From positions 1 to 45,375 of IMG/VR virus record IMGVR_UViG_3300022876_000180: a stretch of DNA of 45,375 bases. One strand, 5' to 3'. How positions within the stretch are numbered: the stretch's first letter is position 1; every line of letters starts with the position of its first letter. This DNA comes from a virus (Duplodnaviria > Caudoviricetes). The position numbers and the translations under genes were made by a program. The notes below the pieces were generated by a model. It saw only the letters and a program-made list of their open reading frames with translations. It was not told the DNA's origin and ran no database searches. Positions 6,446 to 44,888 of the stretch are shown in pieces.

Positions 6446-6482
6446 GGTATTGCCTCACTCTGTGGTGGAAGAGAGTGGGCAT

Positions 6483-6533
6483 AATTCAACCCATGCGGTT
6501 GTTTTTGTCAATGAAAATTAACCCAAAAGGTTA
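6483..6533 (-). promoter_or_regulatory. pL-like promoter with two repressor operators
   Basis: Minus-strand TTGACA (6511-6506)-17-TGAATT; palindromes CAACC-N5-GGTTG (6487-6501) and TAACC-N5-GGTTA (6519-6533). Confidence 0.7.
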
Positions 6534-6545
6534 GTTTTTAAGAGT

Positions 6546-6574
6546 TTGCTTTTGTGGTGGCCATGGGCTATAAA
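6546..6574 (+). promoter_or_regulatory. sigma70 promoter for the RT cassette
   Basis: TTGCTT-17 bp-TATAAA. Confidence 0.6.
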
Positions 6575-6584
6575 ATAGGCAAGG

Positions 6585-6616
6585 TCGGGTGTACCACCCG
6601 AGCGCGCTCTTTAAAA
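6585..6616 (+). promoter_or_regulatory. boxB-like hairpin plus boxA antitermination element
   Basis: tcgggtg-tac-cacccga hairpin, then GCTCTTTAAAA (6606-6616), matching the boxA consensus GYTCTTTAANA. Confidence 0.6.
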
Positions 6617-6639
6617 TTCATCGATAGAAATAATCAGGC

Positions 6640-6962
6640 TTGCAGTTGTGATTGGTAAAACAATCAGCTTTGGGTTCTACAAAGCTTTATCCGCCACCCG
6701 TATGTCCGCCCTGATCGAGTTCACAGATTACTGCTTATGCAGACCTGTGGGTTAAGCCTCAACGTTTCTTAGCGCTGAGTGCAGAGATTACTCTCCGTCA
6801 CCGTAAAGATTTAACGTTAACGATACTCGTTGACGGTTTGTCCTAACGCTGACCGAAGAGCAGCCACCGTTGGCCAATCTGGCTAACGCTAACTTAGATC
6901 AATAGGGTGAACAATGCGGCGGACGGGCTTATTAAACTTCGTTTAATAAGCCAGAACTGCGA
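6640..6962 (+). ncRNA. Putative retron-like msr-msd ncRNA
   Basis: Closing inverted repeat ttgcagtt (6640-6647)/aactgcga (6955-6962); unpaired G6648; two short hairpins (6649-6666, 6667-6685); large enclosed domain (6704-6924); perfect 12-bp hairpin 6926-6952; upstream of a retron-type RT. Confidence 0.6.
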
Positions 6963-7038
6963 TTTGTATGGACACCTTCATGTTCCTTTCGGCCTGAAAG
7001 CTTCGCGGCGGGGCAATCCAGCCCGTGAGGATATATCG

Positions 7039-7293
7039 ATGCAAAAATTTAAGAGTACTCAACGTTCTGCGTTGAAAAGTAAGCAAGACAATGAAGGTGT
7101 TCGCGTTGTTAAAAAAGGCAAAGGGAAACCAAAATCTAAGGTTCCTTCAGAACGAGAGAAGAAAAGTAGTGCTTTTGAGAAGGTGAAAGGCATTGTTACT
7201 CGACTTTCGGTAATGTGGATCTATGATAATTGGTCCCTTATCCATGATAAGGCATCGTTTTGTATCGATGTTTTGATGGAGATTCTTAAATAA
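7039..7293 (+). CDS. 84-aa Lys-rich protein with hydrophobic/amphipathic C-terminus; candidate retron effector
   Basis: GAGGA RBS 7 nt before ATG 7039. The longer GTG start at 6907 runs through ncRNA hairpins and is unlikely. Confidence 0.65.
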   Translation: MQKFKSTQRSALKSKQDNEGVRVVKKGKGKPKSKVPSEREKKSSAFEKVKGIVTRLSVMWIYDNWSLIHDKASFCIDVLMEILK

Positions 7294-7327
7294 TGACGCA
7301 GCAAATCGCATCATCGAAATTTTAGAG

Positions 7328-7353
7328 GGCCCGCATGGTTGCGGGCCTTTTTT
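7328..7353 (+). terminator. Intrinsic terminator between small ORF and RT
   Basis: ggcccgca-tggt-tgcgggcc followed by T6. Confidence 0.75.
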
Positions 7354-7366
7354 ATGGATATTAAAA

Positions 7367-8395
7367 ATGACTACGGCAAGATATACAAGGAAGCCTGTTT
7401 ATAGTCTGAAAGCTCTCGGGCTAATGCTGGGAGAGAGCTCTGAGTTGCTTTTAAAGTTAGGTGCAAGTAGTAGTGGGCTTTACCGTGAAGTTCTGCAGCA
7501 GAAAAAAGACAAGTCGGTAAGGGTGACCTTTGATGCTTTTCAGCCATTGAAAAGGGTTCAGAGAAAAATAGTAGACAGATTGCTGATCCATGTTAGTTAT
7601 CCCAGCTATCTTCATGGTGGTATTCGGGATGTAGACTCTCCCAGAAGTCCTCTTTCAAACGCTCGGACACACCTCGGGGCAAAATCAATCGCACTGCAGG
7701 ATATAACTAATTTTTTTCCATCTATCTCAAGAGATAAGGTGAAAAATATTTTTACGGGGTTCTTTGGTTTTGGATCGGGAGTATCTGAGCTACTGTCGTT
7801 ACTTGTGACGAAGGATGGCTTTGTTCCGCAGGGAGCAAGTACTAGCAGCTATTTGGCAAATCTTGTGTTTTGGGATGTTGAGCCTCGTTTAGTAGGCTGG
7901 ATCCATAGTCAAAATCTTATATATACCCGCTTTGCTGATGATATTACGATTTCGTCGAAAGTATTTGTCAGCGATGAACAGTGGGCGGAGATAATAAGTA
8001 AGGTTACAGGGATGCTCGCTAGTAAAGGCTTCAAGCAAAAGAGAACTAAGTTGCATGTTCTAAAAAAAGGGCAAGCACTGACAAAAGGGGATAAGCCCGA
8101 GCCGCTCGTTATTACAGGCTTAGGTATATCAGGGAGTTCTACTGGTGTGATAAAGGCTGAGCGGCATAAAATCAGGGCTGCTGTAAGGCAGTTTGAGGTC
8201 GCGATAGAGTCTGGGAGTAGCTTTGATGAGGTAGCTCATCTTTATCATAGTGCAATGGGGCGAGTGGGGCGCATGCTTGCATGCGGACAGCCATCGGGCT
8301 TTGAGTTCAAAAAGCGTCTGAATGAAGCCAAAAGGCTAGGTCAGATTTCATTGATAGATAAATATATCGCTGAAACGAGTACCGTAAGTGATTAA
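7367..8395 (+). CDS. Retron-type reverse transcriptase (342 aa, no fused effector)
   Basis: NARTH (retron NAxxH, aa 98-102), DITNFFPSI, PQGASTS, YTRFADD (FADD at aa 189-192), ITG (VTG-like, aa 249-251). Confidence 0.9.
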   Translation: MTTARYTRKPVYSLKALGLMLGESSELLLKLGASSSGLYREVLQQKKDKSVRVTFDAFQPLKRVQRKIVDRLLIHVSYPSYLHGGIRDVDSPRSPLSNARTHLGAKSIALQDITNFFPSISRDKVKNIFTGFFGFGSGVSELLSLLVTKDGFVPQGASTSSYLANLVFWDVEPRLVGWIHSQNLIYTRFADDITISSKVFVSDEQWAEIISKVTGMLASKGFKQKRTKLHVLKKGQALTKGDKPEPLVITGLGISGSSTGVIKAERHKIRAAVRQFEVAIESGSSFDEVAHLYHSAMGRVGRMLACGQPSGFEFKKRLNEAKRLGQISLIDKYIAETSTVSD

Positions 8396-8399
8396 GAAG

Positions 8400-9047
8400 T
8401 TAGAGGCTAGAGATCTTCCAACGAGCTCTACCACAGATGCTCCATTCTTCATCTAATTTAATTATTCTTTCTGGCCAGTCAGGATTCAATGCATATAGGA
8501 ACTGTTCATTTCCCTCTTGTCTAAGCTGTTTCAGAGTTGCAGCTTGATCTCTTGTTCTTTTCGCCGCGACGAAATGACCTGGAAGTGACTCAAGAGATGG
8601 ATCAATGACAATCATGTCACCTTCAAGAAATTTCGGCTCCATGCTCATTCCTTCGACTCTGAGAATGAATGCTTTAGGTCCCACTGGGCCTGGGGCTTCA
8701 ATCCATTCCTCTGCATCCCGAGAATCGAAACTGCCTTGAGGTTCACACCACGCTCCAGCTGCGATCGACCCAATTACTGGTAGTTTTCTACCTGTATGGC
8801 TGAGAATTGTGGTGTTGCTGAACTCGTCCAGGCCAAATGGCATGTCGAGATAGCCATTGTGAAGATTTAGAGCAACCTCTAACTCGCGGGCAATCTGATC
8901 ACCAATTCCTTTCGTGGGGTTCTTCCCCCCAAAAGCACTTACCTGTGCTGGTGCCTTCCCAAGCAAATCAGCAATGTCAGTAAGCCGCAGCTTCTTTTCA
9001 GCGAGCACGCGACGGAAATTCTGGAGGCGGGTATCTGAAATTTTCAT
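8400..9047 (-). CDS. cI: CI-like repressor (HTH + S24 peptidase)
   Basis: N-terminal HTH, AG cleavage site (IAAG), GMSM serine and TLKQL lysine. Confidence 0.9.
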   Translation of the reverse strand: MKISDTRLQNFRRVLAEKKLRLTDIADLLGKAPAQVSAFGGKNPTKGIGDQIARELEVALNLHNGYLDMPFGLDEFSNTTILSHTGRKLPVIGSIAAGAWCEPQGSFDSRDAEEWIEAPGPVGPKAFILRVEGMSMEPKFLEGDMIVIDPSLESLPGHFVAAKRTRDQAATLKQLRQEGNEQFLYALNPDWPERIIKLDEEWSICGRARWKISSL

Positions 9048-9066: not shown

Positions 9067-9125
9067 TAACCTTTTGGGTGAATGTCCAAAATGGTATTGA
9101 AAAAATTAACCTTTATGGTTAAATT
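9067..9125. promoter_or_regulatory. OR-like operators and pR promoter
   Basis: TAACC-N5-GGTGA (9067-9081), TAACC-N5-GGTTA (9107-9121); TTGAAA (9097-9102)-17-TAAATT (9120-9125). Confidence 0.75.
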
Positions 9126-9381: not shown

Positions 9382-9650
9382 AAAAAAGGCGGCCTATAGG
9401 CCGCCCAGTTCCTCCCGGCACGCACCACCACAGCGCTGTCGGGTCGCGATAAAGGTAGGCGGGCACACCACATGCGAACCGTCGACCTTTACCGCGCTTT
9501 CCAAGGCTCGGAAGCCTTGGGTTGCTGCCTTTCTCCACCACAGATAGGGCAGCTGTTGCGCCAGGGGTGAGCAACGGATGCTTGCCCCGGTACGGTGCCG
9601 GTGTCGGTCTTGCGGACCTAGCCGGCTTTTGGGCCCTTTCAGCCACGCGG
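9382..9650 (-). ncRNA. Putative structured antisense/small RNA with UGUGGUG loops
   Basis: Minus-strand terminator (ggcggcctataggccgcc + T6) at 9382-9405; several hairpins, some needing G-U pairs available only on the minus strand; possible extended -10 (TGaTACATT) near 9653-9661. Confidence 0.5.
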
Positions 9651-43760: not shown

Positions 43761-44888
43761 ATGGGATCTATCACCGTTCGCAAGCGGAAGGACGGGTCTG
43801 TTGCGTACAACGCCCAGGTCCGGATCATGCAGAAGGGCGTGACAGTTTATCAGGAAAGCCAAACATTCGACCGCAAGACCACGGCCCAGGCCTGGATCAA
43901 GCGCGTTGAAACGGAAATGGCGGAGCCTGGGGCAATCGCGAGGGCTTCCAGGAAGGGAGTGACGCTCAAGGAAATGATCGCTCGCTACCTCGATGAGTAC
44001 GAAAAGCTCCGGCCGCTGGGCAAGACCAAGCGCGCAACGCTGAAGGCAATCGGCGATAGCTGGCTGGGACTGGTAGAAGATAAGGATCTAACCAGCCAGA
44101 AACTGGTCGAGTACGCCAATGAGCGAATGCTGAAAGCTGGTGTCCAGCCGCAGACTGTTGGTAACGATCTCGCCCACTTAGGGGCCGTTCTGTCCGTGGC
44201 CAGGCCTGCCTGGGGCTATGACATTGATCCGATGGCTATGCCAGATGCACGGAAGGTGCTGCGCAAGATGGGGGCGGTGTCTCGGAGCAACGAACGCGAC
44301 CGCCGACCGACCATGGAAGAGCTGGATACTCTGCTGAAGTATTACGAGCAGATGCGCGACAGGAGGAAGCAGGAAATCGATATGGTGCGCATGATCGGCT
44401 TCGCGCTTTTTTCCACTCGCAGGCAGGAGGAAATTACCCGTATTCGCTGGGATAGCATGGATGAAGCCAAGCAGATGGTTCTGATCACGGACATGAAGAA
44501 CCCCGGCCAGAAGTACGGCAACGACGTTTGGTGTCACCTGCCTGATGAGGCCTGGCGAATCATGATGTCGATGCCGCGGGTGGCCGATGAGGTTTTTCCT
44601 TACGTCGCAAAGTCGGTGTCTGCCTCGTTCACCAGGGCCTGTCTGTTCCTGGAAATTGAGGACCTGCATTTTCACGACCTTCGCCATGACGGCATCAGTC
44701 GACTGTTTGAAATGGGGTGGGATATCCCGAAAGTGGCCTCTGTTTCCGGTCACCGGGATTGGAACTCGATGCGGCGCTATACGCACCTGAGGGGGAATGG
44801 CGATCCATATAAGGACTGGCCATGGTTGGAGAGGATAATATCGGGCCCCACGATCGAGGCCCAGAAGAGATCAGCAAACGCTTCGTAG
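43761..44888 (+). CDS. int: Second dusA-associated tyrosine integrase
   Basis: Same catalytic motifs and long identical blocks shared with 1..1095. Confidence 0.93.
   Translation: MGSITVRKRKDGSVAYNAQVRIMQKGVTVYQESQTFDRKTTAQAWIKRVETEMAEPGAIARASRKGVTLKEMIARYLDEYEKLRPLGKTKRATLKAIGDSWLGLVEDKDLTSQKLVEYANERMLKAGVQPQTVGNDLAHLGAVLSVARPAWGYDIDPMAMPDARKVLRKMGAVSRSNERDRRPTMEELDTLLKYYEQMRDRRKQEIDMVRMIGFALFSTRRQEEITRIRWDSMDEAKQMVLITDMKNPGQKYGNDVWCHLPDEAWRIMMSMPRVADEVFPYVAKSVSASFTRACLFLEIEDLHFHDLRHDGISRLFEMGWDIPKVASVSGHRDWNSMRRYTHLRGNGDPYKDWPWLERIISGPTIEAQKRSANAS

Follow-up and report, generated by a model that had tools for sequence, protein, structure and literature searches.

The stretch of viral DNA analyzed here (45,375 nucleotides; Duplodnaviria, Caudoviricetes; IMG/VR record IMGVR_UViG_3300022876_000180, positions 1 to 45,375; the window in what follows) is a temperate phage with an integrase, a cI-like repressor, a cII-like gene, a primase, a terminase, a portal, a contractile tail and lysis genes. 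Beside the repressor gene it carries a cassette on the plus strand consisting of a promoter, a 458-nt non-coding stretch (6581-7038), an 84-aa open reading frame (ORF; 7039..7293), a hairpin with a U run, and a 342-aa reverse transcriptase (RT) gene (7367..8395). We put the probability at about 0.9 that this locus is a hybrid-RNA retron of the type VI lineage without a helix-turn-helix (HTH) gene. The GC content of the cassette (6600-8400) is 0.41-0.46, compared with 0.57-0.64 in its flanks; the cI/cro region is also low, at 0.44-0.49. Two operator-like palindromes of the TAACC..GGTTA type, at 6487 and 6519 (6487..6533, no strand assigned), lie at the left border of the cargo slot, probably as part of the leftward promoter region, and matching palindromes are found at 9067 and 9107, between cI and cro. 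The right border is the cI-like repressor gene (8400..9047, minus strand; S24 peptidase domain), which is convergent with the RT gene. The predicted sigma-70 promoter (TTGCTT-17-TATAAA, 6546..6574) was not called by a consensus promoter scan; a TTG..TA(n)AA pair was judged by eye to lie about 10 nt upstream of the first hairpin in most of 30 homologues. An earlier reading made from the letters of the DNA alone (the sequence-only reading) had described an AT-rich cassette between pL and cI with a promoter, about 450 nt of hairpin-dense non-coding DNA, an 84-aa basic ORF, a terminator and a retron RT, and all of these elements were borne out.

The RT has the three motifs given in that reading, NARTH (residues 98-102), FADD (189-192) and ITG (249-251), and it was assigned from profile models, a tree, a fold match and motif spacing. 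Among the PADLOC models RT_VI was the best match (E 7.5e-68, 227 bits), ahead of RT_V (2.4e-63) and RT_IV (6.7e-49, 165 bits). The top match of the predicted fold was the RT of retron Ec86, and retron structures ranked first. We rejected membership in the DRT, UG or Abi groups, because the NAxxH and ITG motifs of retrons are present, the Drt2 and Drt3a models reached only E about 1e-6, and retron structures headed the fold ranking.

We gathered related loci from three sequence collections. Querying the genome contigs with the single protein gave nothing, and querying the same contigs with an alignment retrieved relatives. The resulting RT tree has 54 rows, 30 of them from the lineage of the window, including one (L061) without upstream DNA whose label comes from its tree position alone. 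These 30 HTH-less rows fall into a single clade (100/98), which groups with HTH-bearing RTs from Halomonas and Arhodomonas (94/93), while the type V RTs form a separate clade (100/99); a quick tree of 101 rows had the same shape. In other words, the HTH-less lineage is one clade whose closest relatives carry the HTH. PADLOC was run on two of the more distant loci: one (L118) has SP_VI and HTH_VI genes and the other (L030) an SP_VI gene, so these distant loci are canonical type VI. The genome of Pseudomonas sp. QTF5 contains one full-length RT_VI match, the locus L003, whose RT is 58% identical to that of the window and falls with it in one seven-row subclade (100/98). QTF5 is already listed, as Mestre-604, under clade 3 and type VI in the portion consulted of the supplement of PMC10849725 (Mestre-604 is presumably Retron-Psp1, judging by names and order), and because this type VI-listed RT shares the subclade of the window, the lineage already lies within type VI by its RT.

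Another marker of the lineage is an insertion in the RT before the VTG motif. The distance from the catalytic DD to VTG was 56-62 residues in all 72 HTH-less RTs, compared with 47-49 in 14 of 19 HTH-bearing RTs (the other five could not be parsed) and, of 15 type V RTs, 50 in the 12 that could be parsed. The insertion was thus present in 72/72 HTH-less RTs and in 0/14 parsed HTH-bearing ones. The RT is under selection, with a pN/pS of 0.21 (14 pairs). A deep-branching HTH-less member (L062:2430-4032; 40% RT identity) has the same RNA motifs and the RT insertion; its small ORF, of 83 aa, is unmatched by the lineage profile and ends 19 nt before the RT.

To define the absence of the HTH we used 69 lineage loci, chosen with thresholds of 46.5% for RT identity and 850 nt for the length of upstream DNA. 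They comprise 58 distinct RTs, and both the window itself and a contig identical to it are counted among the 69. Thirteen of these loci served to build the small-protein profile, and six HTH-bearing loci the HTH profile. We found that none of the 69 lineage loci has an HTH gene between the small ORF and the RT, while 19 more distant loci have one at that place. The small ORF was present in 69/69 lineage loci, ending 71-83 nt before the RT; one locus (L092) has an unrelated HTH gene behind the RT, on the opposite strand. In the window, no HTH gene was found in the cassette, and only the cro-like ORF matched the HTH profile, weakly (E 0.0007; 1/502 ORFs). No full-length HTH_VI was found in the four host genomes searched, where the best match was partial (54.6 bits); a Halomonas control genome gave HTH_VI at full length (89.6 bits). 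Since our locus scans used lineage-derived patterns, we also searched 401 genomes from the family of QTF5 with RT_VI. At E 1e-50 it matched in 27 genomes, and of the 28 loci six belonged to this lineage, one of them being QTF5; all six had the small ORF and the RNA and lacked the HTH. The remark in the sequence-only reading that no dedicated HTH gene is present therefore applies to the whole lineage.

Where canonical type VI loci start the HTH gene, the window has the terminator-like hairpin (7327..7353, plus strand; stem 7327-7348, U run to 7353, -21.4 kcal/mol), which was absent from the output of a terminator scan. All 30 representatives have a hairpin after the small ORF, at -15 to -27 kcal/mol, with a U tract in 13 of them. 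In five HTH-bearing loci, the 63 nt before the HTH start reached only -6 to -12 kcal/mol.

Upstream of the RT, three sequence blocks are conserved in 69/69 lineage loci. Together with the small ORF they appear to belong to one hybrid RNA of about 770 nt (6581..7353, plus strand, with predicted ends) that joins an msr-msd arm, a riboregulator arm and the small-protein ORF, as indicated by folding, covariation and RNA contigs. The segment 6578-7360 folds at -280.6 kcal/mol (z = -7.5), a value that none of 20 shuffles equalled. We aligned 30 representatives at <95% identity and chose 12 helices from the alignment; 95.9% of the cells were paired and 35 of the 71 pairs had changes on both sides. 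None of 500 shuffles scored as high and slid controls were 27-48% paired, although both controls are inflated by relatedness and by a structure derived from the same sequences. An unbiased scan found 66 helices of at least five pairs, 11 of which had at least two double-sided changes. The conservation upstream of the RT that the sequence-only reading had proposed to look for is thus found, both in the blocks and in helices covarying across the 30 homologues. Rfam gave nothing meaningful for this RNA (three matches far under the gathering score).

The RNA, all of whose elements lie on the plus strand, begins with the stem-loop P0 (6585..6601; 99.5% paired, double-sided changes in 5/7 pairs), followed by the near-invariant GCTCTTTAAA (6606-6615). 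P0 is also present in HTH-bearing relatives. The anti-start-codon strand of helix P1 (6619..6626) pairs with 7034-7041, which holds the AUG of the small ORF (95.7% paired, 4/7 double-sided). The segment 6634..6647 contains a strand of P2 (6634-6640, pairing with 6991-6997; 100% paired, two double-sided changes) and a candidate a2 strand (6641-6647, pairing with 6955-6961; 99% paired, no double-sided change); the invariant G6642 is one candidate for the branching G, and further candidates for the priming site are G6648 and a G after IR2. Two msr-like stem-loops follow (6649-6666 and 6667-6685, within 6649..6685; double-sided changes in 5/7 and 4/6 pairs), and then a length-variable msd-like arm (6690..6952), whose base contains direct repeat 1, GCGGCGG (6916-6922), and which has a 3' hairpin at 6926-6952. 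This arm, by analogy with the type VI retron Vpa2, is likely to be the template of the RT; its fold has z = -4.8 in the window and -0.3 to -7.4 across the 30 homologues. The sequence-only reading took the length of the non-coding RNA as a sign of novelty, but length is not diagnostic, because msr-msd spans of anywhere between 193 and 387 nt occur within the lineage.

The segment 6958..6980 holds inverted repeat (IR) strand IR1 (6958-6967), which pairs with IR2 (7301-7310) past the stop codon (99.3% paired, three double-sided changes), and a strand of P4 (6971-6980), which pairs with 7092-7101 inside the ORF and is the top covarying helix (6/10 pairs), also in the unbiased scan. The riboregulator (6982..7031) consists of an anti-Shine-Dalgarno (anti-SD) strand GTTCC (6982-6986), direct repeat 2, GCGGCGG (7005-7011), and the SD sequence GAGGA (7027-7031). 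The anti-SD helix is 89% paired with no double-sided change, and the SD has an unpaired probability of 0.16. In 7294..7310, the P5 strand (7294-7299, pairing with 7103-7108), which closes the rest of the ORF, precedes IR2. IR, P4 and P5 together make a three-arm junction, which P1 and P2 cross. P1 exceeded 0.5 in 29/30 nascent folds (RNAs cut 21 nt past the AUG), and full-length folds had IR in 25/30 and P4 in 27/30; for the window the two fold states differ by about 6.7 kcal/mol. A direct repeat of 6-10 nt was found in 30/30 representatives and the repeat pair also in 9/9 outside loci. The copies match better within loci than between them (5/2000 permutations, with relatedness not removed). 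A further pairing in the window's own fold, 6595-6618 with 7318-7341, was rejected, as it showed no covariation in the alignment scans. HTH-bearing relatives share the same RNA architecture; the RNA is therefore inherited rather than new.

A further line of evidence on the RNA comes from metatranscriptomes. Part of the cassette was found in 24 soil runs, of which we mapped eight, all as unstranded contigs without a DNA control, from soil studies of 2018-2019 and perhaps from one campaign. Contigs started at 6587-6599 in 7/8 runs and ended at 7292-7324 in 6/8; the exceptions were one starting at 6480, one stopping at 7047 and one extending into the RT gene to 7652, and three contig ends carried adapter letters. 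Such contigs cannot rank expression of the RNA against that of the RT, and uncovered stretches are no evidence. We take them as a weak to moderate hint that fits a discrete RNA over the predicted span. In run X2 the RNA contig has a 1-nt insertion at 7501, in an A run early in the RT gene, which may be an assembly error or slippage.

The small protein has a basic, disordered N-terminal half (net charge +9 in residues 1-40) and two C-terminal helices (residues 39-63 and 65-83; mean pLDDT 65 in the predicted structure). No credible family was found for it in Pfam, NCBIfam, PHROGs or PADLOC, and the Atlas leads were all below 0.9. Its homologues fall into 63 clusters without a Pfam domain, and all the named ones are from Pseudomonadaceae. 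Mean column identity is 41%. The pN/pS of the small ORF was 0.43 overall and 0.43 in the C-terminal helices (14 pairs), and by its sequence we regard the protein as a separate family under purifying selection. Synonymous change fell in codons 1-24 (pS 0.18, compared with 0.36-0.49 elsewhere), as is expected where RNA pairing adds constraint. By its position, and by analogy with Vpa2 and with Sen3, another type VI retron, the protein is likely to be a toxic effector. An alternative 128-aa ORF from a GTG at 6907 was rejected, since an SD and a covarying anti-AUG strand accompany the 84-aa start and homologues do not preserve the extension. The sequence-only reading had proposed that one RNA of about 770 nt is both the template of the RT and the mRNA of a toxin; the single RNA with an msr-msd arm and an occluded ORF is supported by covariation and RNA contigs, and the toxicity is a prediction.

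How the locus relates to described retrons depends on which feature is compared. As described in the accessible part of Zhang et al. (bioRxiv 10.1101/2025.10.22.683967), Vpa2 has a clade 3 RT, a three-arm hybrid RNA around a central node, the ribosome-binding site and start codon of its small protein in the second arm, inverted repeats that enclose the ORF, a direct repeat of 7 nt with copies in the msd arm and the riboregulator arm, and a hairpin of about 25 nt at the predicted 5' end of the multicopy single-stranded DNA (msDNA), all of which resemble the window. The differences are that an HTH mutant of Vpa2 is toxic and derepresses msDNA, whereas the cassette has no HTH and a terminator-like hairpin instead; that the RNA is about 770 nt here and about 470 nt in Vpa2; that the small protein has 84 aa and belongs to a separate family, compared with 55 aa; and that the RT of this lineage has the insertion before VTG. 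Sen3 (cluster cl2075), in the accessible text of Garcia-Rodriguez et al. (bioRxiv 10.64898/2026.04.27.721009), likewise has a 5' conserved stem-loop, whose place P0 occupies, a basal stem hiding the start region of the small protein, IR1-IR2 spanning the ORF, selection on structure within the ORF and two alternative conformations. Its HTH, however, is a needed protein antitoxin (a frameshift could not be maintained) and its single-stranded DNA (ssDNA) is constitutive, whereas our lineage has neither an HTH nor an SP_VI match. The closest known element is the QTF5 retron, which agrees with the window in RT subclade, HTH-less layout, small-protein family and cI-side slot, with no difference in layout; the texts covered, in the parts available, do not remark on its HTH-less state.

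Type VI is defined by gene content as having a Cro/C1-type HTH of cluster 2_1 upstream of or overlapping the RT (PMC7736814, in the part available), and its small proteins, of clusters 2075, 2760 and 3272, are three-helix bundles, compared with two helices and a disordered N-terminal half in our model. The locus has the RT grouping and the hybrid RNA of type VI, and it has neither the HTH nor a small protein of these clusters. Because its anatomy is Vpa2-like but the HTH of the gene-content definition is missing, we file it as an HTH-less variant of type VI. The RT phylogeny suggested in the sequence-only reading thus led to a described type with the same RNA layout, and the RNA-plus-ORF arrangement is not supported as new, since it is that of the published type VI hybrid RNA (Vpa2, Sen3). 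What distinguishes the lineage is the missing HTH, which both characterized type VI retrons need to avoid self-toxicity. In the accessible text of bioRxiv 10.64898/2026.04.27.721009, an HTH accompanies about 78% of 158 type VI entries, 22% are without an HTH cluster, and a mainly Pseudomonas clade is named cl3897; this clade may be our lineage and may include the QTF5 retron, and the covered text does not describe the HTH-less layout. Our literature searches, which left subscription journals largely outside, found no paper on an HTH-less type VI retron.

Two sister types also combine a clade 3 RT with the lack of an HTH. Type V (Retron-Sen1/Se72), whose model was second best for our RT, differs in its RT of about 390 aa, its downstream cold-shock gene and its separate clade, the window RT having 342 aa and a convergent cI as the next gene. 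Type IV (Retron-Eco6/Ec48) has a downstream gene with two transmembrane segments, and the window has no such ORF. As a side observation, in type V-like loci (RT of about 390 aa plus cold-shock gene) we noticed an ATG ORF of 59-87 aa with a hydrophobic C-terminal helix that ends 21-49 nt before the RT. It was present in 10/10 such loci (L128, L034, L035, L032, L064, L038, L041, L042, L046 and L043) among 13 parsed, with nine more unparsed, compared with 6% of shuffles. Three of these loci (L128, L064 and L041) also have a 5' hairpin and the GCTCTTTA motif. Type V retrons may, on this sequence pattern, be hybrid-RNA retrons with an unannotated small effector, for which our literature searches found no report.

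We examined the site beside cI in 79 prophage loci with a related cI. The slot was measurable in 69 prophages, being empty in five (89-172 nt) and filled in 64, with cargo of 0.8-4.4 kb and GC content of 0.39-0.46; in two of the 64 the cargo is this retron. We scanned 66 of the 94 cargo ORFs, excluding near-duplicates, short ORFs and the retron of L176. PADLOC matches at E 1e-8 or better were found for 32 of the 66 proteins and include PtuA-like, AriA-like, AbiTii, PD-T7-3 and UG17 RT models. Judged by its gene content, the site is a hotspot of defense cargo in related prophages, which agrees with the exclusion-gene slot of the sequence-only reading. The comparison with rexAB made there is loose, as the lambda rexAB genes follow cI in the same direction, while the cassette is read from a promoter of its own in the direction of cI. 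The other 34 of the scanned proteins (139-854 aa; slots of L176-L254) had no match at that threshold and are, by sequence, candidates for new defense genes. Three loci share a pair of genes of 191 and 453 aa, scanned in L201 as UG17 RT plus SLATT. Eight further loci of the retron lineage adjoin the same cI and the remaining ones are at other sites, in several cases close to restriction, Sir2, TIR, HNH or Kiwa genes. Annotated phage records were also searched, and the cassette was absent from them. The host genus of the prophage is likely Pseudomonas, because every named close relative is Pseudomonas.

Several other features of the window were noted. The stop codons of the RT and cI genes (8393-8402) are 4 nt apart with no terminator called between them, so read-through from cI could be antisense to the RT mRNA. 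A second integrase, at 43761-44885 near the right end of the record, belongs to the same PHROG families as the integrase at 1-1095 and perhaps marks a second element. Between cro and the cII-like gene (9410-9560) lie three hairpins with CACCACA loops, at 9426, 9466 and 9536; three copies occur at this position in 65/79 related prophages, and the motif is also on the leftward transcript, at 6467 and 6440. RNA contigs from two runs cover 9425-9577. No Rfam family matched the hairpin region at gathering level, and these hairpins are possibly nut-like or sponge RNAs.

For the working of the retron we lean, by a little over even odds, towards RNA-level repression of the toxin that is lifted by phage-induced reverse transcription; this reading draws on sequence, folding predictions and analogy. 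One RNA of about 770 nt would carry the msr-msd arm together with the 84-aa ORF, with start codon and ribosome-binding site predicted to be paired. During transcription, according to the folding predictions, the 5' strand would pair with the AUG (P1, P2). Once complete, the RNA would fold into the three arms (IR, P4, P5), its SD paired with the anti-SD, while P1 and P2 would give way or persist as pseudoknots. As carried over from Vpa2, recombination proteins of an incoming phage, or inhibition of RecBCD, would cause msDNA to accumulate, and its copy of repeat 1 would pair with repeat 2 next to the SD; Zhang et al. propose, in the accessible text, the direct repeats as the msDNA target. Release of the lock would allow the small protein to be made and the infection to be aborted. 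RNase H acts in msDNA synthesis, and we suggest that its removal of the copied msd would also sever the 5' anti-AUG strand from the ORF in cis. The brake of the HTH may have been replaced by the RNA locks, by the hairpin lowering RT expression and perhaps by the RT insertion. By analogy, the retron likely defends against other phages. None of the 56 window ORFs scanned in PHROGs was a Red-like recombinase or exonuclease, a negative that is weak evidence only. The stricter version, that of a retron with two genes, where the folding of the RNA by itself takes the place of the protein antitoxin and reverse transcription is the switch, through msDNA invading the RBS-side repeat (RBS, ribosome-binding site) and RNase H cutting the anti-AUG strand off the toxin mRNA, is tentative, and we hold it to be somewhat less probable than its opposite.

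A number of points weigh against this interpretation. According to the accessible texts, the RNA of Vpa2 alone fails to hold the toxin off after HTH mutation (bioRxiv 10.1101/2025.10.22.683967), and the control of Sen3 is post-translational (bioRxiv 10.64898/2026.04.27.721009). Nested folds of the full-length RNA leave the AUG partly accessible (unpaired 0.3-0.9 in most of the 30); repression therefore needs pseudoknots, the anti-SD helix, which lacks double-sided changes, or kinetic trapping. In the predicted msDNA, the complement of the repeat is for the most part base-paired rather than exposed. The candidate priming stem a2/a1 showed no covariation. The small protein does not match PADLOC SP_VI in any of 29 members, while the Halomonas and Moraxella controls do. 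Its only motif in common with a canonical Halomonas small protein spans 15 columns (hhalign probability 17%) and coincides with P4. It has no segment of transmembrane strength (maximum mean hydrophobicity 0.16-0.55). With no SP_VI match, the case for toxicity therefore rests on position, selection and amphipathic helices. The limits of the RNA contigs given above count here as well. One point in its favor is also open to doubt: a stop lies inside the RT in 2/69 lineage loci, and both keep the small ORF intact, a pattern that would follow if something other than the RT is the antitoxin, but these stops may be sequencing errors.

The small protein could instead always be made and be held inactive by a protein partner, as in Sen3, whose own control (in the accessible text) works in this way. 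The partner might be the RT, through its insertion or C-terminal helix, or an HTH protein acting in trans, for instance the cI of the prophage or an XRE regulator of the host. An RT insertion confined to HTH-less RTs (72/72, 0/14) would suit the former and the seven-row subclade, which mostly adjoins cI, the latter, and the partly open AUG also speaks for this explanation. Yet a trans-acting HTH fits poorly with the absence of full-length HTH_VI from all four hosts, with the weak match of the window's cro-like ORF and with the lack of a cI near most lineage loci, and RT-broken loci that retain the small ORF count against the RT as partner. A start-codon lock that covaries is also hard to place in this explanation, and we consider it unlikely. 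Less probable again is that the element has been disarmed or repurposed, the small protein having lost its toxicity after the HTH was lost and the structured RNA and RT serving another role, for example in lysogeny control, or none. Fast divergence of the small protein (41% mean column identity), best-kept residues that RNA pairing can explain and the two RT stops would agree with it. They have to be set against an ORF kept in 69/69 loci, its pN/pS of 0.43 overall and in the C-terminal helices, and an RT pN/pS of 0.21, as well as a location mostly away from this prophage's cI, in several cases beside restriction, Sir2, TIR, HNH or Kiwa genes, and a slot that carries interchangeable defense genes and is empty in 5/69 prophages.

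The canonical retron logic, finally, would have the RT constitutive without the HTH and the RT-msDNA complex as the antitoxin, so that phage damage to the msDNA frees the toxin. HTH loss raises msDNA in Vpa2 and ssDNA is constitutive in Sen3, as far as the accessible texts go, and the sister types IV and V have no HTH. But the QTF5 member of this subclade, expressed in E. coli as RT plus predicted non-coding RNA, gave no detectable ssDNA according to the published part consulted, although that construct may have lacked the full RNA. The small ORF is, moreover, kept in the RT-broken loci, and the repeat pair complementary to the msDNA is conserved with covariation, as would suit activation by msDNA. 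We regard this logic as improbable, the least favored of those considered.

If RNA-level repression lifted by reverse transcription holds in its stricter, protein-free version, the RNA-only switch would represent type VI immunity in its minimal form and add a third control strategy to the type. The two type VI retrons studied to date both rely on the HTH as their central brake, and its loss is toxic. A widespread Pseudomonas lineage without it, in which the RT, the RNA and the small ORF are under selection, is thus a natural experiment on HTH function. Detectors that require HTH_VI or SP_VI likely miss these loci, because neither model matches them. The lineage also offers a test of whether RNA structure suffices to restrain a toxin until msDNA appears. 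It provides the smallest construct for the riboregulator model, in which msDNA pairs with the repeat, and the covarying helices name the mutations to make. A protein-free translation switch gated by msDNA would, in addition, serve as a sensor.

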